Part shown: positions 1-63,508 of the stretch, piece by piece
Position numbering within the stretch: the stretch's first letter is position 1
Layout of the letters: every line of letters begins with the position of its first letter
Assembly (NCBI GenBank): GCA_963804995.1
Contig: CAWDSK010000009.1
Span: 224,001-288,000, forward strand
DNA from: an uncultured Acidobacteriota bacterium
GTDB lineage: Bacteria > Acidobacteriota > Terriglobia > UBA7540
Length of the DNA stretch: 64,000 nucleotides
Direction: 5' to 3'
Made by a program: the position numbers and the translations under genes
Notes under the pieces: model-generated
Told to the model about the DNA's origin: nothing
What the model saw: only the letters and a program-made list of their open reading frames with translations
The model's database searches: none

Positions 1-42
1 CATGGAATTGGTAAAACCGGGATAGCCTGCGAAGCATTCTTT

Positions 43-113
43 ACCGCAGAGGCGCAGAGACGCAGAGAAAAGGCATTCTTTTTAAGCTCTCTGCGTCTCC
101 GCGCCTCTGCGGT
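43..113. repeat. Palindromic intergenic repeat, family B (ACCGCAGAGGCGCAGAGACGCAGAG...CTCTGCGTCTCCGCGCCTCTGCGGT)
   Basis: Imperfect inverted repeat. Related copies at 14278-14348, 25403-25478, 43588-43659 and inside the MITEs at 27749, 28718 and 49898. Confidence 0.85.
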
Positions 114-168
114 GAAAGGGAGTTGTTTCCGGGCCCGCAGAGTGCTAGGCTTTAGGCAGGAGGCGTAT

Positions 169-1655: not shown

Positions 1656-1798
1656 TGGCTGCATGATGGGGCCGGGCCAAGCGCCCGGCCTCTGCACTTC
1701 TCAAAGAGATTTCTCACCTGGGCCCAGCACCGCTCAGCAGCGCCGCAGAATTAAACCAATAGACAAAGCGCAAAATCCAAAGTTGCCAACGGCTGGCG

Positions 1799-3711
1799 GT
1801 TGCGGTAGGGATACCGGTTACCCGGTACCCCCCGCACGGATCCGTACGTGCGCTGGTTAGCGCATACGGCTCTTATCTCGGATGTGTGGCGGCGAACCGT
1901 TGGGATGGCCAAGGATGCACAACGTGCGGAGCAGGCAACCAGCAGGCCGCAAGCTTCCCCAGTCGGTCCCAGTTGAGGCGGTGGCGTTGACTGCGTTGAC
2001 GCAGTTGTGTTCGCCACAGTCGGGTCAACCGTTCCCGAAAGATTCGCAGGCGGTCGAGGTTTCCCGGTACCGCGTGATAGTTGAAGTAGCCTTGCACGAC
2101 CGACCGGAGCCATTTACCCGTATCCGCGATGGGATCGTGCCGACGCTGCCGGAGTTGTTGCTTGAGTTCCTGCAACTTCCCCCGCAGGCGCTTGCTGATC
2201 GTCTTCCGCTTCACGGTAAATTGCCCCCTCCGGTTCTTCCCGCTGATATGCGTGAAGCCCAGAAAGTCGAACGTCTCCGGCTTACCTTCTCCTCTCCGTT
2301 TCCGGTAAAGTTCGGCAAACGGCCCGAACTCGATCCGGCGCGTTTTGTCAGGATGCAGTTCCAATCCAAACTTCCCCACCCGCTCCCGGAAATCCTCCAG
2401 AAAGCGGTCGGCTTCCGTCTGCGATTGGAATCCAAGGACCGTATCGTCGGCATACCGCACCACGACCACGTCTCCCCGGGCGTGCTTCTTGCGCCACGCC
2501 TGCACCCACAGGTCAAAGACGTAGTGCAGATAGATATTCGCCAGCAGGGGCGAGACCACCGCCCCTTGTGGCGTACCCATCTCCGTCTCCGACCATTCGC
2601 CTTCCTCCCTCACCCCGGCTTTCAGCCATTTCTGGATGAGCCGGAGAATCCGGGGGTCGGCGACGCGATGCTGCACGAACTTGAGCATCCATTCGTGGGA
2701 TATCGAATCGAAAAATCCACGAATGTCCGCGTCAAGAACGTAGTTCACGTGCTTCACCGTGAGCGCGTACGAGAGCGCGTCCAGCGCTTGATGCTGGCTG
2801 CATCCCGGTCGAAAGCCATACGAGAAGCCCAGAAAGTCTTCCTCGTAAATCGCCTTGAGGATGGTGACCACGGCCTGTTGGACGATCTTGTCCTCCAGTG
2901 CCGCAACCCCCAACGGACGTTGCCGCCCGTCGCCTTTCGGGATATACGCCCTTCGCGAGGGCTTCGCTCGGAATGCTCCGCGGTGGACCCGGCTGTGCAG
3001 ATCGACGAGTCGACCTTCCAGCCCGCTTTCATACTCCTGCCACGTCATGCCGTCTACTCCCGGTGCAGCTTTTCGCTTCAAGGCGTAAAAGCTTTCCCGC
3101 AGCAGATCGACCGTTAAGTGGTGGAGCAAGGCCGTGAACTTCATCTCCCTGTGTTCCTTCGCGGCTTTCCGCACACCCGCGAGTCCCTGGGACACGCGTG
3201 CCCCGCTCTGTGTCGGGTGCGTGTTAGGCCAACGGGTGTTCTCCTTGATCAGCGGCCTTCCCTCCTCATTCTCCGCCAACGGCTTCCCGTCTTTGTTCAA
3301 ATGATTCATCGGTACTGTTCCGCTGTCCGACTCCTCGAGAGCGTGCAGGCGGGCTGTACGGCCATCGCCTTTTCCCGCCGTCCGGCCACGATCTACGGCG
3401 GCCGGCGCCTCCGAGGTCTCCCGGTTCTCGTGCAGAAAGTGTCTAGGCGTGTCTGGGGTCTACGACTACGCAGGACTGTGCCGGAACTCGCGTTGGCGTC
3501 CCGGCCTCATGTTGCCTTCCGTTTAGTCTGAAAACGTCGGCGTCCTGATTGGACATTTTCGAAGCTCAATACCCAGCCCACCTATTCCCCTGTTTACGCT
3601 TCACCGTGCGCCTCACGACGCCCAGCGCAAAACTCGGGGCCGAGTGGATCGCTACTCCTTCCTCGTGAGAAATTTTCATTCTCTGCTTTCTGCCGGTTTA
3701 TCCCGGCGCAC
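1799..3711 (-). mobile_element. Group II intron, copy 1 (1913 nt)
   Basis: 5' GTGCG at 3711. Domain V (GAGCCGTATGCG...CGCACGTACGGATC) and domain VI end in ...CCGCAAC at 1799. Boundaries are confirmed by copy 2 and by the empty site at 4089/4090. Confidence 0.97.
1873..3309 (-). CDS. ltrA: Group II intron reverse transcriptase/maturase (no HNH endonuclease domain visible)
   Basis: APGVDG, RPLGV, SYGFRPG, LDADIRGFFD, GTPQGAVVSPLLANIYL, RYADD and FDFLGF motifs, plus maturase X domain GYFNYH. Confidence 0.97.
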   Translation of the reverse strand: MNHLNKDGKPLAENEEGRPLIKENTRWPNTHPTQSGARVSQGLAGVRKAAKEHREMKFTALLHHLTVDLLRESFYALKRKAAPGVDGMTWQEYESGLEGRLVDLHSRVHRGAFRAKPSRRAYIPKGDGRQRPLGVAALEDKIVQQAVVTILKAIYEEDFLGFSYGFRPGCSQHQALDALSYALTVKHVNYVLDADIRGFFDSISHEWMLKFVQHRVADPRILRLIQKWLKAGVREEGEWSETEMGTPQGAVVSPLLANIYLHYVFDLWVQAWRKKHARGDVVVVRYADDTVLGFQSQTEADRFLEDFRERVGKFGLELHPDKTRRIEFGPFAELYRKRRGEGKPETFDFLGFTHISGKNRRGQFTVKRKTISKRLRGKLQELKQQLRQRRHDPIADTGKWLRSVVQGYFNYHAVPGNLDRLRIFRERLTRLWRTQLRQRSQRHRLNWDRLGKLAACWLPAPHVVHPWPSQRFAATHPR

Positions 3712-3901
3712 CAGACCCCCGTTCTTTGGGGTCTGCGATGTCTCGCAGGGACACTCTCTTGGCCAGTGTTTGGAGCGTGTAGAGTCTTACCGTTCTGCAC
3801 GCGCATCTAACGCCCCCGACATGACCACTGGTTAGCCGCAACTCACGCCTGCCACTTCGGGGCATCGCAGACCCCAAAAACCGGGGGTCTGCGCCAGCCA
3901 A
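3712..3901. repeat. REPIN-like doublet (family A), copy 1; left end at 1785-1798 is split off by the intron
   Basis: Two inverted hairpins (CGCAGACCCC..GGGGTCTGCG) around a unique spacer of about 125 bp. Near-identical to 4076-4279. Confidence 0.9.
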
Positions 3902-3930: not shown

Positions 3931-4019
3931 CCCTCTCCGAGGGGTCGCAGAATCCGCCGTGGCGGAAGAGGGTGGACCGCCGCGGCGTTTTCACCAGCCG
4001 GGACGGGACGGGTGAGGGG
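3931..4019. repeat. Palindromic repeat, family C (GAGGGTGGACCGC...GGGACGGGTGAGGGG)
   Basis: Related copies at 9869-10007, 32571-32643, 33665-33888, 48748-48820 and 63283-63416. Confidence 0.85.
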
Positions 4020-4075
4020 TCTCTTCGTCACCCGCTCGCTGCCTTCCGCTTTCTGCCTTCTGTTCTTATTGTGCC

Positions 4076-4279
4076 GCCAACGGCTGGCGCAGACCCCGGC
4101 CCTTTGGGGTCTGCGATGTCTCGCAGGGACACTCTCTTGGCCAGTGTTTGGAGCGTGTAGAGTCTTACCGTTCTGCACGCGCATCTAACGCCCCCGACAT
4201 GACCACTGGTTAGCCGCAACTCACGCCTGCCACTTCGGGGCATCGCAGACCCCAAAAACCGGGGGTCTGCGCCAGCCAA
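4076..4279. repeat. REPIN-like doublet (family A), copy 2, uninterrupted
   Basis: GGCTGGCGCAGACCCC...GGGGTCTGCGATG-spacer-CATCGCAGACCCC...GGGGTCTGCGCCAGCC. Matches 1785-1798 + 3712-3901 except in the first hairpin loop. Confidence 0.92.
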
Positions 4280-9759: not shown

Positions 9760-9868
9760 ATCACTGCTAGGCCAAATGAAAGGCCACTCCGCGGGGGCAA
9801 TATATCGGGCCAAGCGTCAAGAGTCAATGCGCGTGCCGGCGCGTGGCGTTCAACGGTTGCCGGCTTGA

Positions 9869-10007
9869 CCCCCTCACCCGTCCCGCCCCGGCTGATGAAA
9901 ACGCCGGCTGCGGTCCACCCTCTGTCGCCGCGGCGACCGAGGGCTGTAAAATGAACTTAACTCCCCCCTCGGTCGCCGCGGCGACAGAGGGGCCGGGGGT
10001 GAGGGGG
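9869..10007. repeat. Family C palindromic repeat
   Basis: CCCCTCACCCGTCCCGCCCCGGCTGATGAAAACGCCGG...GGGTGAGGGGG. Confidence 0.85.
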
Positions 10008-14067: not shown

Positions 14068-14373
14068 GCATCACCTCCTGCGAGTTTCGGAGGGACTCGG
14101 CGGTGGACTGGGGCTGGCTTCGGGTCAAACCAACCCGCACGGAGGGCAGATTGTACAACAGTTGTTGTTATAAGCAACTTCTTTTCCGGGTCGCAGCGAC
14201 ATTGTGCCCGTCTCGCTAAGCGAAATGTGATTGGATGAACCTCATCGCATTCCAAGCCGTGAAGGATTACTATCTTTACCGCCGAGGCGCTGAGACGCAG
14301 AGAAGGGCGTGTTGTTTTCAGTTCTCCGCGCCTCTGCGTCTCTGCGGTGAAACGTATGCGATAGGGAGTTGCT

Positions 14374-24153: not shown

Positions 24154-25443
24154 ATGACTCAAATTGCCATACCGGATATTCGCGCGGCGGTCCAGTCCGT
24201 CCAGCGCGAGACGGAGCAATTTCTCTGTGATTTGATTCGCTTCCCTTCTCTGCCCGGCCAGGAGACGGAGGCAGTGGATTGCGCCGCCGCGCGCTTCGCC
24301 GAGGTGGCGGAGGTGGAGCGCGTGCCGCTTTCCAACTCCCTGCGCGAGGACGAAGACTACAGCGATCCCGTCCCCGGCATCGAGTATGAGGGGCGGTCCA
24401 ACCTCCGCGTGCGCGTTCCCGGAACCGGCGGCGGGCGCTCACTGCTCTTCAACACCCATCTCGATGTCGTGCCCGCCTCGAAAGGGCAGATCGGCGCTTT
24501 TGAACCGCGCGTGGAGGCAAACAAGATTTTTGGGCGCGGCGCCTGCGACGCCAAAGGACAAGCCGTCACGATCTTCACTGCGCTGCTGGCCGCGAAACGC
24601 CTGGGCTTGAAATTTCGGGGCGATGTCATCGCGCACCTGGTGGTGGAAGAGGAGGTGGGCGGCAACGGCACGCTGGTGATGGCGCGTCGCGGTGAGAAGG
24701 CGGATGCCTGCATTGTGATGGAGCCCACCGAGCAGCGCATTCTCACCTCGGTGCGGGGCGCCGTGTGGTTCCGGGTAATTTGCACCGGCAAACCAGGACA
24801 CCCGGGGCGGGTGGGCGATACGATCAGCGCGCTGCGCATGGCCATTCGCGCCATTGAAATCCTGGACCAGTATCATGCGCGCCTGCTCGCAGCGTCCCGG
24901 GGCTTTCCGCTTTTTGATCCCTTCCCGAATCCCATGCCGATTATCTTTGGCAAACTCATGTCGGGCGACTGGCCGGCCATGTCGCCTGCCAGTGCCACCC
25001 TAGAGGGCGTGCTGGGCCTCTTGCCGAACAAGACTCGCTACCAGGTGATGGAGGAGATGCGGCAGGCCCTGGTGGAGGGTGGAGACGAGTGGTTCCGCGA
25101 GCACTTCCGGCTTGAATTCATGTACCGGCACGACGCGCAGGTGCTCGACCCGGCGCACCCGCTGGCCACCGGTCTTCAGGCCTGCGCCCGCGAAGCCGGA
25201 GGTCGCGGCGAAATCAGCGCCATGCCCGCGTCGTGCGATTCCTGGTTGTATAATAACCAACTTAAGATTCCTACACTGGTGTATGGCCCGGGCAGCCTGG
25301 GTTTTGCCCACACGACCATAGAGCAGATCGGCCTGGATGAAATTGGCCAGGCGGCCACCACTCTGGTGCGGTTCCTGGGGGAATGGTGCGGGCAGGAGGA
25401 GTTCACCGCAGAGACGCAGAGACGCAGAGAAAAGGGCTTTTGA
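24154..25443 (+). CDS. M20 family amidohydrolase (ArgE/DapE-like)
   Basis: NTHLDVV, GRGACDAKG, VEEEVGGNG, MEPT and AHT..E motifs. Confidence 0.9.
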   Translation: MTQIAIPDIRAAVQSVQRETEQFLCDLIRFPSLPGQETEAVDCAAARFAEVAEVERVPLSNSLREDEDYSDPVPGIEYEGRSNLRVRVPGTGGGRSLLFNTHLDVVPASKGQIGAFEPRVEANKIFGRGACDAKGQAVTIFTALLAAKRLGLKFRGDVIAHLVVEEEVGGNGTLVMARRGEKADACIVMEPTEQRILTSVRGAVWFRVICTGKPGHPGRVGDTISALRMAIRAIEILDQYHARLLAASRGFPLFDPFPNPMPIIFGKLMSGDWPAMSPASATLEGVLGLLPNKTRYQVMEEMRQALVEGGDEWFREHFRLEFMYRHDAQVLDPAHPLATGLQACAREAGGRGEISAMPASCDSWLYNNQLKIPTLVYGPGSLGFAHTTIEQIGLDEIGQAATTLVRFLGEWCGQEEFTAETQRRREKGF

Positions 25444-25508
25444 CTACACTTCTCTGGGCCTCCGCGCCTCTGCGGTGAGATGTCCGAAGACTGGGGGATT
25501 ACGACGTT

Positions 25509-27624: not shown

Positions 27625-27748
27625 GGAAGCTTTCAGCTTTCAGCCATCAGCTATCAGCTATCAGCTAAGAGCTTGGAACTAGACCCACATTTCCAATTTG
27701 AGCGTTACCTCCGAATCTTCGGGTCGTCGCCGAGAGGAACGGTATCAG

Positions 27749-27889
27749 GAAGCTGTGAAAAAATAGACAATCTCGCGCAGAGACGCAGAGGCGCAGAGAT
27801 TTTAAGCAAATAACTGATTTGTTTTCTTTGTGGCCTCCGCGCCTCTGCGCAAGATGCTTTTGCTCGTTCCGGAATTTCTTCACAGCTTC
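27749..27889. mobile_element. MITE with TIR GAAGCTGTGAA/TTCACAGCTTC and an internal family B palindrome
   Basis: Terminal inverted repeats; homologous to 28718-28866 and, inverted, to 49898-50045. Confidence 0.75.
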
Positions 27890-28657: not shown

Positions 28658-28717
28658 GGGCTAACTATACGTTAGAAACGGATACAGGTCAACCCTAGTG
28701 GGGGGGAACGGTGTCAG

Positions 28718-28866
28718 GAACCCGTGAAAAAATGAGCAGCCTCGCGCAGAGGCGCAGAGCCGCAGAGATTCGAAATAAATAAATGCTTTAATTTCATTGC
28801 CGCCTCCGCGCCTCTGCGTCTCTGCGCGAGATGCTTTTGGTCTTCTGGCTAATTCTTCACACCTTC
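28718..28866. mobile_element. MITE copy with 3-bp target duplication (CAG)
   Basis: GAACCCGTGAA...TTCACACCTTC flanked by CAG on both sides, inside AACGGTGTCAG|GTACC. Confidence 0.7.
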
Positions 28867-32244: not shown

Positions 32245-32379
32245 GGCTGGCGCAGACTCCTGGTTTTGGGAGTCTGCGATCCCGAAGGGACTTCGCATTA
32301 ATGACCGTAGCGCCCACCTGATCGCCGCTACGGCTGCTTTGGGATCGCAGACACCAAAGAACGGGTGTCTGCGCCAGCC
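32245..32379. repeat. REPIN-like doublet (family A), unoccupied intron target
   Basis: GGCTGGCGCAGACTCC..GGAGTCTGCGAT...ATCGCAGACACC..GGTGTCTGCGCCAGCC. Confidence 0.9.
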
Positions 32380-32733
32380 AGCGAATCTTCGGATCGTCGC
32401 CGTCATCAGTATTCATGCGCCAGCCAGCCCCCCCTCGCAGTGCCCCCGACACTCCCCCGTATCGTTATCGGCGGTGGCCTTGACGAGGATGAAACTTATT
32501 TTGAGTTGGGAACTCGGCGCAGTACTGCCTTCGTGAAATTTGCGGCCCAGGAGGTGGAGGGTTGAAAGGACCCCCTCACCCGGCCCGCCCCGGCTGGTGT
32601 AAACGCCGGTTGCGGTCCACCCTCTCCCCCAAAGGGGCGAGGGATGTTAGTCGATGCCAGTCCCTAGCCCCGAGAACCCAGCACCCAGCCCCTAATCCCC
32701 AGCCCCCAGAACCCAGCACCTGACCCCCAGCCC

Positions 32734-33518: not shown

Positions 33519-33664
33519 GAGTCTCCGCTACGAAGGTTTCAAGTTACATTTTACAGTATAAAACGTCGACGGCATACCTCCCTGCGAAAGACGAGTTTCT
33601 TCTGTCACGCGAAGAACCCAGTTCGGTGTGGTGTGTTATCGTGCTGGCGGGGGCGGCGAAGAGA

Positions 33665-33888
33665 CCCCTCACCCGTCCCGCCCCGGCTGATGAGAACGCC
33701 GGCAGCGGTCCACCCTCTCCCCCTGGAGAGGGTGGCTAATCTTTCTTTGTGGTCTCCCTGCAACTGGGGTGGCGAGTGTGGGTACTTTTCAACCTCAAGG
33801 GATAGAAGTCAGAATCATAGCCCTCTCCGAGGGGAGAGGGTGGACCGCTGCCGGCGTTTTTACGAGCCGGAGCGGGACGGGTGAGGGG
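33665..33888. repeat. Family C full-length palindromic doublet
   Basis: Long inverted arms CCCCTCACCCGTCCCG...CGGGACGGGTGAGGGG. Confidence 0.85.
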
Positions 33889-34020
33889 TCACTCCCGGCG
33901 GGACGCTCACCCCAATAAAGCGGGGCCAATAAATTCAAATCAACGCTCACGCTCGCTCAGTGGCTTGGGAGCTTCAGCGGGTGTACACTCTCGTGGCAAT
34001 CTTAAGAACGGAGCCTTCGC

Positions 34021-43561: not shown

Positions 43562-43690
43562 GAGACGGTGAAAGAATGTCTGTCTTAACCGCAGAGGCGC
43601 TGAGACGCAGAGAAAATCCCTTTGGCCTTCAAGCCTCTGCGCCTCCGCGCCTCTGCGGTGAGAAGCTTTACGCAACCCCCCGCCCTGAGA

Positions 43691-48613: not shown

Positions 48614-48909
48614 TCTAGCTTGCCGCTGGGATTTCGGGCATGAGGAAAGCCCACGGTCAGAAAAACGCTGACCGTGGCTACCCACCCCTTCGCCACGATT
48701 CATTTGCTCACATTGCGCAGGAAGAACCGCCCCGATTTGAGCCCTAACCCTCGCCCCTTTGGGGGAGAGGGTGGACCGCAGCCGGCGTCTTCATCAGCCG
48801 GGGCGGGACGGGTGAGGGGGTCACACAACAACCAAGTGAGGAACAAGCAAACGTCGGCGAAAACAAAGAACCGTCCCGATGCCTCGGGGTGCTACCTCAC
48901 ACCACGCAC

Positions 48910-61290: not shown

Positions 61291-63203
61291 GTTGCGGTAG
61301 GGATACCGGTTACCCGGTACCCCCCGCACGGATCCGTACGTGCGCTGGTTAGCGCATACGGCTCTTATCTCGGATGTGTGGCGGCGAACCGTTGGGATGG
61401 CCAAGGATGCACAACGTGCGGAGCAGGCAACCAGCAGGCCGCAAGCTTCCCCAGTCGGTCCCAGTTGAGGCGGTGGCGTTGACTGCGTTGACGCAGTTGT
61501 GTTCGCCACAGTCGGGTCAACCGTTCCCGAAAGATTCGCAGGCGGTCGAGGTTTCCCGGTACCGCGTGATAGTTGAAGTAGCCTTGCACGACCGACCGGA
61601 GCCATTTACCCGTATCCGCGATGGGATCGTGCCGACGCTGCCGGAGTTGTTGCTTGAGTTCCTGCAACTTCCCCCGCAGGCGCTTGCTGATCGTCTTCCG
61701 CTTCACGGTAAATTGCCCCCTCCGGTTCTTCCCGCTGATATGCGTGAAGCCCAGAAAGTCGAACGTCTCCGGCTTACCTTCTCCTCTCCGTTTCCGGTAA
61801 AGTTCGGCAAACGGCCCGAACTCGATCCGGCGCGTTTTGTCAGGATGCAGTTCCAATCCAAACTTCCCCACCCGCTCCCGGAAATCCTCCAGAAAGCGGT
61901 CGGCTTCCGTCTGCGATTGGAATCCAAGGACCGTATCGTCGGCATACCGCACCACGACCACGTCTCCCCGGGCGTGCTTCTTGCGCCACGCCTGCACCCA
62001 CAGGTCAAAGACGTAGTGCAGATAGATATTCGCCAGCAGGGGCGAGACCACCGCCCCTTGTGGCGTACCCATCTCCGTCTCCGACCATTCGCCTTCCTCC
62101 CTCACCCCGGCTTTCAGCCATTTCTGGATGAGCCGGAGAATCCGGGGGTCGGCGACGCGATGCTGCACGAACTTGAGCATCCATTCGTGGGATATCGAAT
62201 CGAAAAATCCACGAATGTCCGCGTCAAGAACGTAGTTCACGTGCTTCACCGTGAGCGCGTACGAGAGCGCGTCCAGCGCTTGATGCTGGCTGCATCCCGG
62301 TCGAAAGCCATACGAGAAGCCCAGAAAGTCTTCCTCGTAAATCGCATTGAGGATGGTGACCACGGCCTGTTGGACGATCTTGTCCTCCAGTGCCGCAACC
62401 CCCAACGGACGTTGCCGCCCGTCGCCTTTCGGGATATACGCCCTTCGCGAGGGCTTCGCTCGGAATGCTCCGCGGTGGACCCGGCTGTGCAGATCGACGA
62501 GTCGACCTTCCAGCCCGCTTTCATACTCCTGCCACGTCATGCCGTCTACTCCCGGTGCAGCTTTTCGCTTCAAGGCGTAAAAGCTTTCCCGCAGCAGATC
62601 GACCGTTAAGTGGTGGAGCAAGGCCGTGAACTTCATCTCCCTGTGTTCCTTCGCGGCTTTCCGCACACCCGCGAGTCCCTGGGACACGCGTGCCCCGCTC
62701 TGTGTCGGGTGCGTGTTAGGCCAACGGGTGTTCTCCTTGATCAGCGGCCTTCCCTCCTCATTCTCCGCCAACGGCTTCCCGTCTTTGTTCAAATGATTCA
62801 TCGGTACTGTTCCGCTGTCCGACTCCTCGAGAGCGTGCAGGCGGGCTGTACGGCCATCGCCTTTTCCCGCCGTCCGGCCACGATCTACGGCGGCCGGCGC
62901 CTCCGAGGTCTCCCGGTTCTCGTGCAGAAAGTGTCTAGGCGTGTCTGGGGTCTACGACTACGCAGGACTGTGCCGGAACTCGCGTTGGCGTCCCGGCCTC
63001 ATGTTGCCTTCCGTTTAGTCTGAAAACGTCGGCGTCCTGATTGGACATTTTCGAAGCTCAATACCCAGCCCACCTATTCCCCTGTTTACGCTTCACCGTG
63101 CGCCTCACGACGCCCAGCGCAAAACTCGGGGCCGAGTGGATCGCTGCTCCTTCCTCGTGAGAAATTTTCATTCTCTGCTTTCTGCCGGTTTATCCCGGCG
63201 CAC
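61291..63203 (-). mobile_element. Group II intron, copy 2 (1913 nt)
   Basis: Collinear with 1799-3711 at an offset of 59492; differences seen at 62346 and 63146. Confidence 0.97.
61365..62801 (-). CDS. ltrA: Group II intron reverse transcriptase/maturase
   Basis: Identical to 1873-3309 except one K/N residue. Confidence 0.97.
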   Translation of the reverse strand: MNHLNKDGKPLAENEEGRPLIKENTRWPNTHPTQSGARVSQGLAGVRKAAKEHREMKFTALLHHLTVDLLRESFYALKRKAAPGVDGMTWQEYESGLEGRLVDLHSRVHRGAFRAKPSRRAYIPKGDGRQRPLGVAALEDKIVQQAVVTILNAIYEEDFLGFSYGFRPGCSQHQALDALSYALTVKHVNYVLDADIRGFFDSISHEWMLKFVQHRVADPRILRLIQKWLKAGVREEGEWSETEMGTPQGAVVSPLLANIYLHYVFDLWVQAWRKKHARGDVVVVRYADDTVLGFQSQTEADRFLEDFRERVGKFGLELHPDKTRRIEFGPFAELYRKRRGEGKPETFDFLGFTHISGKNRRGQFTVKRKTISKRLRGKLQELKQQLRQRRHDPIADTGKWLRSVVQGYFNYHAVPGNLDRLRIFRERLTRLWRTQLRQRSQRHRLNWDRLGKLAACWLPAPHVVHPWPSQRFAATHPR

Positions 63204-63282
63204 CAGACCCCTGTCCTTTGGGGTCTGCGGTTCTTCGTGCCCGCCGACCTTCACTCGCCCCTTAAGTGGTTCATTGGTGACT

Positions 63283-63416
63283 CCCTCACCCCCCGGCCCC
63301 TCTCCCCCAAAGGGGCGAGGGGGGAGTCAATTTGAATTTACCGCCCTCTCCCCTTTGGGGGAGAGGGTGGACCGCCGCCGGCGCTTTCATCAGCCGGAGC
63401 GGGACGGGTGAGGGGG
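63283..63416. repeat. Family C palindromic repeat
   Basis: CCCTCACCCCCCGG...GGGACGGGTGAGGGG. Confidence 0.85.
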
Positions 63417-63508
63417 TTGTCCAACAAGTAGCGCGGACTGGGGTTGGATTTCCCCCCAGCCCCTAGCTCTCAGCCCCTAATCCCCGTTCTTGTGGTACGC
63501 TTTTAGGG

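Follow-up and report, generated by a model that had tools for sequence, protein, structure and literature searches.

It is likely that the group II intron on the minus strand of the analysed window (the whole stretch of 64,000 nucleotides) retrohomes into one arm of a REP, a multi-copy extragenic hairpin, by ordinary three-part pairing, and that the hairpin is a by-product of this targeting and not a substitute for EBS2. Comparative evidence for this reading came from the covariation of EBS1 and EBS2 with their exon partners, the rules of REP occupancy, the choice between the two arms and a strand bias.

The intron copies and their REP targets

The window intron (Table 1) contains a domain I core, domains V and VI (DV/DVI), GUGYG...AY ends and an RT/maturase ORF, and a Pfam search of the 478-aa protein returned RVT_1 alone and no endonuclease domain. 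In the host genome we detected 40 copies, all at least 99.6% identical, implying recent mobility. Six common variants recur in mixed combinations among these copies, and the flanking DNA differs from copy to copy. Four copies located at contig ends were left out of the REP table; the other 36 were assessable, and all of them (36/36) were found at a single register of a RAYT-associated REP. No RNA run contained more than 0.20 of the words, and in four runs examined further none of the joints listed (15 of 32) was at the intron ends. Since the contig pieces in these four runs are mostly less than 95% alike, they appear to represent mainly relatives.

Using our own pattern, we identified 290 REP copies in the genome. 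The terminal tetranucleotide was GTAG in 22 of the 36 occupied and 186 of the 254 empty REPs, and CTGG in 13 occupied and 34 empty ones; occupied REPs span these two subfamilies, with one further site of another type. REPs flank 2 of 14 Y1_Tnp matches, ranked 11th and 12th, and one REP motif only was found at the ten best loci. Both flanked genes pass NF047646 (115.9 and 110.9 bits; cut-off 80), and at each of them one REP carries the intron. By its sequence the repeat appears to be a GTAG-type REP with a RAYT, flanking of a REP-associated tyrosine transposase being observed.

Table 1. Features of the intron and of the REP sites in the window
Feature	Position	Strand	Details
Complete group II intron	1799..3711	-	GUGCG...AAC, 1,913 nt; ends set by comparison with empty REPs
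Intron-encoded RT/maturase	1873..3309	-	478 aa, YADD, no endonuclease domain found; TIGR04416 342.5 bits (cut-off 300)
Domains V and VI	1800..1872	-	Read from sequence
d3 hairpin of domain I	3520..3536	-	Nt 176-192 of the intron; loop holds delta (U, 3531) and EBS1
EBS1 (CAGACU)	3525..3530	-	Partner of exon -1..-6; covariation; invariant in 40/40 copies
Short EBS2 (UGUC)	3552..3555	-	Nt 2-5 of unpaired strand 3556-3548 after CGAAA; partner of exon -9..-12
Candidate delta-prime	3537..3537	-	A of coordination loop; partner of delta U
Candidate EBS3	3519..3520	-	Either of two G; would pair with +1 C of the 3' exon
Occupied REP hairpin, 5' exon	3712..3735	-	IBS1 3717-3712 (GGTCTG) = stem 3' arm; IBS2 3723-3720 (AACG) in loop
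3' exon	1791..1798	-	Remainder of REP, CGCCAGCC; +1 C = IBS3
Second intron copy	61291..63203	-	2 differences; d3 63028-63012; EBS2 63047-63044
Second occupied REP	63204..63227	-	IBS2 63215-63212 (GACA) pairs 4/4 with UGUC
Empty REP	4090..4113	-	In 190-bp near-duplicate of occupied locus
Empty REP	32253..32276	-	Perfect IBS1 (AGTCTG); no IBS2 core (C at -11, A at -12)
Empty inverted partner REP	3868..3891	+	Minus-strand mirror arm: perfect IBS1, IBS3 and stem, yet empty
Second empty inverted partner REP	4246-4269

Pairing between the intron and its target

In the original prediction, a stem-loop (CGTTT-TCAGACT-AAACG) on the intron strand was proposed to carry EBS1, with its placement in d3 and EBS1/IBS1 covariation among homologs as checks. 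This was borne out. In the MFE fold of domain I, the stem at 3536-3520 has 5 bp and its loop 7 nt, and Rfam RF02005 (173 bits, E 2.4e-50) aligns the loop, which is invariant across 40/40 copies, to the d3 hairpin; the structure used here is based on the Rfam model together with a consensus fold of 73 types from RNAalifold. As predicted, CAGACU matches GGTCTG at the two window sites, one of the six pairs being a U-G wobble, and is complementary to AGTCTG of the empty REP at 32253-32276 at all six positions. Only three six-mers among the 300 nt at the intron's 5' end pair 6/6 with GGTCTG when G-U is allowed, and CAGACU is the one located in the d3 loop.

Two homolog sets were examined, from which 24 of 80 loci, and 40 unparsed of 128 plus 9 duplicates, respectively, had been dropped. 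EBS1 matched its own exon at 5.51 of 6 positions in 25 homolog types (2.45 when permuted) and at 5.29 in 41 types (2.31 when permuted), a level reached in 0/20,000 permutations, de-replicated by type and not by tree, in either set. None of four shifted registers was significant. REP variants ending in GGTCCG are matched by EBS1 CGGACU in homologs L009 and L111. Structure and covariation thus support the assignment of this loop as EBS1.

It was also predicted that the IBS2 positions would fall in the variable REP loop and differ between the two sites. Their location and difference were confirmed (AACG and GACA at -9..-12); however, both fit one UGUC segment via U-A/U-G and G-C pairs. This short EBS2 lies in a strand that is unpaired in the consensus fold, and its pairing with IBS2 covaries in 23 types (2.97 of 4 vs 1.74 permuted), in 32 types (2.58 vs 1.68) and in the 17 types absent from the first set (2.38 vs 1.61), each with 0/20,000 permutations as high. 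Among 14 fixed offsets tried, -9 was the sole one with 0/3,000 in both homolog sets, and of 105 single-base cells the two highest scores were those of position 2 against -9 (z 8.1) and position 3 against -10 (z 6.8). The pairing is short: position 5 is paired in just 44% of types, a perfect 4/4 site is present in 11 of 40 EBS2 types, and a related subgroup whose 5' end is longer by 2 nt (L096, L113, L125-L127) shows weak EBS2 pairing or none. In the pK245 homolog the same strand pairs 6/6 with no gap, in contrast to 3-4 nt and a 2-nt gap in the window intron; no intron was seen in the 50-kb stretch of pKPN3 that was examined.

Other pairings were considered for this region. A pairing of EBS2 further upstream, beyond the hairpin (GGACAT, -32..-27, at a few sites), was dropped because most sites read GAAGAA there. 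An extra pair of the EBS2a type, for which position -14 in IIB1 introns is described in PMC12584367, was examined for the family-wide A at -12..-14, and strand position 9 gave no signal at -13/-14 among the top cells. Separately, the cell of position 2 with -15 gave z 3.9.

Both candidate EBS3 G residues are kept in 56/56 homolog sites, and of the 48 sites with a parsed 3' exon, 41 have C and 3 have T at +1. Delta U and delta-prime A were each present in 56/56 sites of one set, and in 79 and 78 of 79 sites, respectively, of the other. For both candidate pairings, EBS3-IBS3 and delta-delta', the bases are compatible, and the intron side is invariant, hence no covariation. Flanking bases outside all EBS pairings are conserved among the copies as well.

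REP occupancy and the role of the hairpin

Among the host copies, C is present at -10 in 37/38 and RCR at -11..-9 in 32/38. The RCR core predicts occupancy: 23/44 REPs with it are occupied vs 4/26 without it (favoured strand, T at -2; p 0.002), and 13/21 vs 4/25 after collapsing identical REPs; the effect is weaker in the standard-geometry subset (22/41 vs 2/10, p 0.08) and in the CTGG subfamily (6/9 vs 4/12, p 0.20). Sites of the favoured strand that mismatch EBS1 are occupied in 3/5 cases with GACR vs 0/56 without it, and all three of these insertions carry the best IBS2. At the level of sequence comparison, these counts show that the 3-4-nt EBS2 shapes target choice and compensates for EBS1 mismatch. 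The core is missing from 5/36 occupied REPs, and the short EBS2 is thus leaky. In the window, the empty REP at 4090-4113 has the same strand and IBS1 as the occupied locus, and C at -9 breaks its EBS2 pairing. With respect to IBS1, 32/170 sites with T at -2 are occupied vs 4/120 with C, and sites with perfect IBS1 (A at -6) are under-occupied (1/12 vs 26/58, p 0.02), for which pairing gives no explanation.

Because the REP is palindromic, IBS1 and IBS3 are offered by both arms. Mirror arms with equal IBS1, IBS3 and stem were occupied in 0/92 cases vs 27/70 native arms, and only 1 of the 92 has the RCR core; therefore, EBS1, EBS3 and the hairpin are not sufficient. The original prediction had placed specificity in EBS1 plus hairpin or protein recognition rather than EBS2, and named a strong conserved EBS2-IBS2 pairing as evidence to the contrary. 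A conserved pairing exists, although it extends over just 3-4 bp and is not strictly required, and specificity without EBS2 is not supported; additional reading by protein or hairpin may still contribute. A strand bias was also evident: 30/131 REPs on the presumed lagging-strand template are occupied vs 6/159 on the other strand, and 25/97 vs 1/118 on four contigs of consistent skew; strand calls are noisy because GC skew is weak.

In the mechanism that we favour, the EBS1 of 6 nt in the d3 loop would pair with -1..-6, the truncated EBS2 with -9..-12 and EBS3 with +1, and the arm would be picked by the loop through EBS2, probably together with protein contacts on the flanks (A at -14/-15 and CYA at +3..+5). 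The RNP would reverse-splice into single-stranded DNA, chiefly the lagging-strand template at the fork, with the nascent strand as primer. Since IBS1 makes up the stem's 3' arm and the 5' arm of the REP nearly copies EBS1, the stem would have to be open at the moment of pairing, and the hairpin may then simply result from aiming at an abundant, harmless repeat. Fork priming, the protein contacts, the dispensability of the hairpin and splicing activity are parts of this mechanism that we infer.

One alternative, which we consider somewhat unlikely, is that the three pairings are assisted by a reading of the folded single-stranded REP, either with the exposed loop serving as a toehold for the short EBS2, after which EBS1 displaces the mimicking 5' arm, or with the protein binding the stem. 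All 36 assessable copies lie in hairpins; in the DNA fold of each (36/36), IBS1 is completely paired and IBS2 is located in the loop. Relatives L096, L113 and L138 occupy the equivalent point in other hairpins, where the 5' arm copies the relative's own EBS1. Of 446 non-REP sites sharing this IBS1 and CGC, none was occupied. Intergenic sites outside hairpins that offer all three pairings on the favoured strand were occupied in 0/17 cases vs 23/44 (p 7e-5). When the REP 3' flank was required too, 3 non-hairpin sites were left (0/3 occupied, p 0.07), so that the effects of hairpin and linear flank are inseparable. On the other hand, relatives with the same or near-identical EBS1 (L126, L128, L141 and L177) are located at sites without a perfect stem, and hairpin stability does not predict occupancy, being alike in occupied and empty REPs (p 0.58-0.84). 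In genome G005, 5/6 copies of a sister intron are found in REPs with a broken stem pair vs 4/12 of the empty ones found (p 0.13), which weakly hints that a firm stem may hinder insertion. The version with a toehold on the REP loop and displacement of the 5' arm as a DNA mimic of EBS1, which is undescribed for group II introns, appears rather doubtful; if it were true, the palindrome would serve as both flag and lock, and the sister subgroup with the 2-nt longer 5' end and decayed EBS2 would represent a IIB lineage moving towards IIC-like structure reading.

It is very improbable that EBS2 is replaced, as in IIC introns, by EBS1 in combination with recognition of the hairpin or by the protein, with the loop complementarity being a leftover or a consequence of REP conservation. 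IIE and IIF introns could do without EBS2 when spliced in vitro, a role in homing being suggested but untested (PMC3753933), most empty REPs also have C at -10 (112/138 with T at -2), and the occupied sites without RCR would fit as well. However, EBS2 covaries in two homolog sets, predicts occupancy and compensates EBS1 mismatches, and mirror arms with equal EBS1 match and stem are never used. In addition, the stem-loop of IIC introns is described upstream of a short IBS1 (PMC7923331, PMC1702495), whereas IBS1 is inside the stem here. A IIC-like hairpin requirement was also unsupported as a family trait: a perfect stem of at least 6 bp ending at -1 was found in 23/134 homolog exons (shuffles: mean 11.5, max 20), and introns that target REPs are interspersed with sisters that do not (8 changes, at least 4 of them forced). 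A tRNA target suggested by eye for homolog L162 was rejected, as ARAGORN found none in 97 empty-site reconstructions (100 + 60 nt).

Wide insertion with survival in REPs only, or copying of intron-bearing REPs by RAYT or recombination, is hardly credible: non-REP matches to the target are mostly in coding DNA, each REP-flanked RAYT gene has one intron-bearing REP and variants are mixed among copies, but flanks differ, two REP subfamilies are spanned, and survival explains neither arm choice within one REP nor strand bias.

Relationship to known introns and implications

The element is a IIB intron without an endonuclease, probably of bacterial class E. In pairwise comparison its protein shares 57% identity with the larger fragment of the disrupted pRmeGR4b intron, named class E in PMC5894124, and 35% with the other intron of that plasmid. 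PDB matches are distant (best 144 bits). In IIE introns, alpha' is at the tip of a stem-loop in DId3 and the DV loop has 5 nt instead of 4 (PMC3753933). In our intron the stem-loop 3' of d3, at the tip of which alpha' would lie, is present and covaries, and the DV loop is not GNRA and has 4 or 6 nt by our pairing, not 5. Class E introns such as S.me.I4 of Sinorhizobium meliloti GR4 and Cl.be.I2 likewise have no endonuclease domain, a hairpin 3' of d3, and EBS1 and EBS2 in domain I (PMC5894124, PMC3753933). Unlike these examples, the window intron targets REPs and is present in 40 copies in one genome, and its EBS2 has 3-4 nt with a 2-nt gap, whereas the IIE/IIF introns selected in PMC3753933 pair over at least 5 bp.

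A class D (IIB3) intron, RmInt1 of S. meliloti, is similar in lacking an endonuclease, in pairing from -13 to +1 together with a few protein-read flanking bases, in preferring the lagging-strand template and in using a multi-copy harmless target; it differs in protein class and in that its target is an insertion sequence, not a 24-nt palindrome with IBS1 in the stem (PMC8914252). IIC introns of terminators and attC sites are also described as inserting at intergenic stem-loops with lagging-template bias and high copy number (PMC1702495, PMC7923331, PMC4424553). In contrast to them, the window intron has a 6-nt EBS1 and an EBS2, its IBS1 is not downstream of the stem, and most relatives have no site hairpin; the features of class C (no EBS2, a 3-4-bp EBS1 and a stem-loop upstream of a free IBS1) were not found. 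Certain insertion sequences likewise use REPs as a fixed, repeated landing site (PMC1525189 and ISPpu9 papers), but they are DNA transposons, whereas the window intron, a retroelement, is directed to its target by loops of its own ribozyme. No REP-homing intron was found in the literature searched.

With its 290 target variants, of which 36 carry an assessable insertion, the host genome serves as an experiment in homing performed by nature. A short EBS2 probably chooses between the two arms of a palindrome. For the most part, the mechanism resembles that already known for RmInt1. REPs join insertion sequences, terminators and attC sites as safe multi-copy targets of group II introns. The intron is a compact element that appears to be active and retargetable. 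With EBS1 and a second short guide that reads the REP loop, its homing would proceed by ordinary RNA-DNA pairing and not by hairpin shape.

The intron, its copies and its class

Searching the 7.55-Mb host genome (G000, nine contigs) revealed 40 matches to the intron with at least 99% identity, 38 of them full-length and two cut by contig ends, where copies may have been counted twice. Both copies in the window were matched by the Rfam model RF02005 (173 and 170 bits), and RVT_1 is the sole Pfam domain of the encoded protein, whose relatives in protein searches were mostly found in Acidobacteriota. Among the 38 copies with at least 30 nt of 5' exon, the exon ends in GGTCTG (33), GGTCCG (4) or AGTCTG (1). 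The 3' exon starts with CGC and has A at +5 in 39/39 copies. Among the 40 copies, single-base variants are common at six positions (58, 373, 858, 910, 1657 and 1704) and occur in mixed combinations, which suggests recombination between copies or mixing during assembly. At other targets (G000:C5:460087, C6:842676, C2:652257, C1:441114, C1:206552 and C9:36920), six short and diverged stretches match the intron ends with 70-90% identity and may represent different intron families, fragments or forms lacking an ORF.

According to the available part of one report, pRmeGR4b carries a disrupted class E intron, S.me.I4 (PMC5894124). Our protein matched a split ORF there with 57% and 47% identity, and another intron, presumably of class D, with 35%. 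Within the class scheme of bacterial group II introns (PMC3552965, available part), the intron is likely a member of class E, as judged from these pairwise matches; two RNA traits named for the class in the accessible text of PMC3753933 read ambiguously here. A IIC identity was ruled out.

Features of the intron, its targets and its relatives
Feature	Position or loci	Strand	Remark
Group II intron	3711-1799 (1,913 nt)	minus	domain I holds the reported hairpin
Second intron copy	63203-61291	minus	2 positions different from first copy
RT/maturase ORF, 478 aa	3309-1873	minus	TIGR04416 above cut-off (NCBIfam)
EBS2 strand, 9 nt	3556-3548	minus	after CGAAA motif; unpaired in consensus fold
RAYT genes	G000:C6:722000-723200 (L227), C5:58200-59700 (L228)		one amid CTGG-type, the other amid GTAG-type REPs; each with intron in one flanking REP
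Dispersed intergenic repeat group	window 38-117, 14273-14352, 25402-25480, 27736-27849, 28705-28818, 43585-43663
Dispersed intergenic repeat group	window 3948-4031, 9867-9923, 32569-32625, 33662-33900, 48748-48831, 63344-63427
TGAAAA-motif loci	L003, L004, L011, L018, L097, L100, L133, L144, L149, L153, L156
Longer-5'-end relatives	L002, L012, L093, L096, L098, L105, L111, L113, L124-L128, L131, L138, L177

Covariation of EBS1 and of a probable short EBS2

The original prediction placed EBS1 in the loop of the hairpin at 3520-3536. This hairpin is the d3 hairpin of the Rfam model, and four of its pairs are kept with compensatory changes in the RNAalifold consensus of 73 homolog types. Covariation of the six loop bases with IBS1 (exon positions -1 to -6) was far above permuted values in both sets of homologous introns, with permutations de-replicated by type and not by tree. 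In the first set (56 of 80 loci parsed), the mean pairing score at fixed register was 5.51/6 over 25 types versus 2.45 permuted (0/20,000), and registers shifted by 1-2 nt had no significance; in the second (128 loci looked at, 88 parsed, 79 new sites), it was 5.29 versus 2.31 over 41 types. Relatives at GGTCCG-type REPs (loci L009 and L111) carry CGGACU as EBS1, and occupancy of host REPs was 32/170 with T and 4/120 with C at -2. The loop is thus confirmed as EBS1 with hardly any room for doubt.

A probable EBS2 occupies nucleotides 2-5 (UGUC) of a nearby 9-nt strand, fitting exon positions -9 to -12 in the REP loop. In the host 5' exons, -10 is C in 37/38, -11 to -9 is RCR in 32/38 and -12 is G in 23/38. 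The register was picked after inspection of the first set (2.97/4 versus 1.74 permuted, best of -9 and -10, 23 types, 0/20,000) and then held fixed for the second, which includes some new sites of first-set introns and scored 2.58 versus 1.68 over 32 types (0/20,000), or 2.38 versus 1.61 for the 17 types new to the analysis (0/20,000). Among 14 fixed offsets in the second set, -9 alone reached 0/3,000. Loci L091-L139 had already been inspected when the parser was finalised together with its rule that a GAAAGCG, GATAGCG or GTAAGCG start marks a 5' end longer by 2 nt. When 105 single-base cells were scanned without bias, position 2/-9 came first (z 8.1) and 3/-10 second (z 6.8). Perfect 4/4 sites were present in 11/40 types (e.g. 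CACC/GGTG, TACC/GGTA, CAAC/GTTG and ACGC/GCGT). In the tree of domain I, most loci using the -10 register belonged to a single supported clade. In the intron on plasmid pK245 (57% identical; probably Kl.pn.I5, going by the available part of PMC3522654) the corresponding strand is longer, with 6/6 pairing to -7 to -12, which implies that EBS2 in the present lineage is a truncated form. Taken from sequence comparison, a functional short EBS2 is likely.

Relatives with the longer 5' end, as judged by EBS1 pairing (usual start GUGCG), are often inserted at hairpins in which the 5' arm is a copy of EBS1; some members of this subgroup show little EBS2 pairing.

REP sites and the contribution of the hairpin

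After script removal of introns, a pattern that fixes -1, -3, -4, -5 and +1 to +3, so that only -2 and -6 vary within IBS1, found 290 REP hairpins, of which 36 were occupied (four copies at contig ends were left out of scoring), and none of 446 non-REP sites sharing IBS1 and CGC was occupied. The intron interrupts the stem in its 3' arm; every one of the six IBS1 bases is paired in the DNA fold at 36/36 occupied sites, and the 5' arm is nearly a copy of EBS1. The REP start on the opposite strand was GTAG in 22 and CTGG in 13 of the 36. Two inverted REPs and a spacer form a 190-bp unit, which we take to be REPIN-like and which is duplicated at 98% identity (window 3712-3901 and 4090-4279); one unit holds the intron, and the loop differs in its twin. 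At least two further families of dispersed intergenic repeats in the window have no relation to the intron target. GTAG-tagged REP families and their transposases have been described (PMC3733652, available part). Of 14 Y1_Tnp matches in the host, two are flanked by REPs of the target family, and both pass the RAYT (REP-associated tyrosine transposase) model NF047646.

Occupancy follows the EBS2 target. On the favoured strand (presumed lagging-strand template) with T at -2, 23/44 REPs with RCR were occupied versus 4/26 without (p 0.002), or 13/21 versus 4/25 with identical REPs collapsed, and a graded EBS2 score separated occupied from empty sites best at -9 among nine offsets (p 0.001). Occupied sites with an EBS1 mismatch had G-R-C-G at -12 to -9 in 4/4; on the favoured strand, such mismatched sites were occupied in 3/5 with GACR versus 0/56 others. 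Both empty same-strand REPs with intact IBS1 in the window (4090-4113 and 32253-32276) have a broken RCR core. On the other hand, RCR is absent in 5/36 occupied REPs, and by subset its effect had p values of 0.08 (standard geometry), 0.03 (GTAG) and 0.20 (CTGG). Against pairing alone, perfect-IBS1 sites with A at -6 were under-occupied (1/12 versus 26/58).

Each REP also provides a mirror site on the opposite strand. On the favoured strand, 92 of these mirror sites combine a perfect IBS1 and the same stem with C at +1. None of them was occupied, versus 27/70 direct sites (p 4e-12), so EBS1 plus hairpin is insufficient. RCR was present in one of these 92 sites and AA at -15/-14 in three, and the contrast is compatible with EBS2 or protein reading of the flanks alike. 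A candidate for protein reading is the A-rich stretch upstream: A is enriched at -12 to -14 (0.68, 0.73 and 0.52) over 53 EBS1 types, and the host equivalent, AA at -15/-14, is found in 33/38 copies.

It is rather doubtful that the hairpin gives extra help besides the pairings. Intergenic favoured-strand sites that allow all three pairings but form no hairpin were empty (0/17 versus 23/44, coding DNA being masked with a rough ORF rule), but the REP 3' flank was kept in just three of them (0/3, p 0.07). A perfect stem of at least 6 bp ending at -1 occurred in 23/134 homolog exons (shuffles: mean 11.5, maximum 20); the 11 REP rows labelled by pattern, which missed some hairpin sites, require eight tree changes, at least four of them forced; the same or a near-identical EBS1 is used at sites without a perfect stem (L126, L128, L141 and L177); and occupied and empty REPs are alike in stability, all of which argues against a need for the hairpin. 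For a sister intron in genome G005, the stem pair at -4 was broken in REPs of 5/6 copies versus 4/12 empty REPs found with two patterns (p 0.13). The original proposal that EBS1 and hairpin or protein reading stand in place of EBS2 is unlikely and was abandoned, since EBS2 covaries and tracks occupancy and the mirror arms are empty.

Targets of relatives and strand preference

Many Acidobacteriota relatives (L032, L041, L044, L049, L061 and others) have as their target an imperfect dyad with CGCG-like sequence at its centre (16/134 sites by strict pattern, more by eye). The dyad could be a recombination site or element end, and its opposite strands are used by two groups of introns that differ in EBS1 and EBS2. 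A second repeated target, which contains a TGAAAA-like motif, is taken by sister introns whose EBS1 sequences are different, and similar flanks precede the host fragments C2:652257 and C1:206552. The 5' exons of L039, L167, L197 and L075 look similar to group II intron sequence, so that these loci may be nested introns; at L047 another intron 5' end follows directly (tandem copies).

We found no published account of group II intron homing into REPs in a search that covered mostly freely accessible papers, and the available parts of PMC2936281, 10.64898/2026.09.22.753630, PMC3733652, PMC8919778, PMC12584367 and PMC5725488 describe no REP-homing intron. Insertion sequences targeting REPs are already known (PMC1525189, available part), and the accessible text of PMC7923331 speculates that a hairpin plays a part in the case of a IIB1 intron adjoining attC.

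The intron sense strand was the locally G-rich strand in 34/40 copies, GC skew being weak and about zero near the window. REP occupancy was 30/131 on the favoured strand versus 6/159 on the other, and 25/97 versus 1/118 on the four contigs with consistent skew. The G-rich strand is read as the leading-strand sequence, and the invaded strand would therefore be the lagging-strand template. In the available part of PMC8919778, class D and E introns show a moderate lagging bias, and terminator association is limited to C, g6, U1 and U2. The lagging-strand template is likewise invaded by RmInt1 (PMC8914252, available part).
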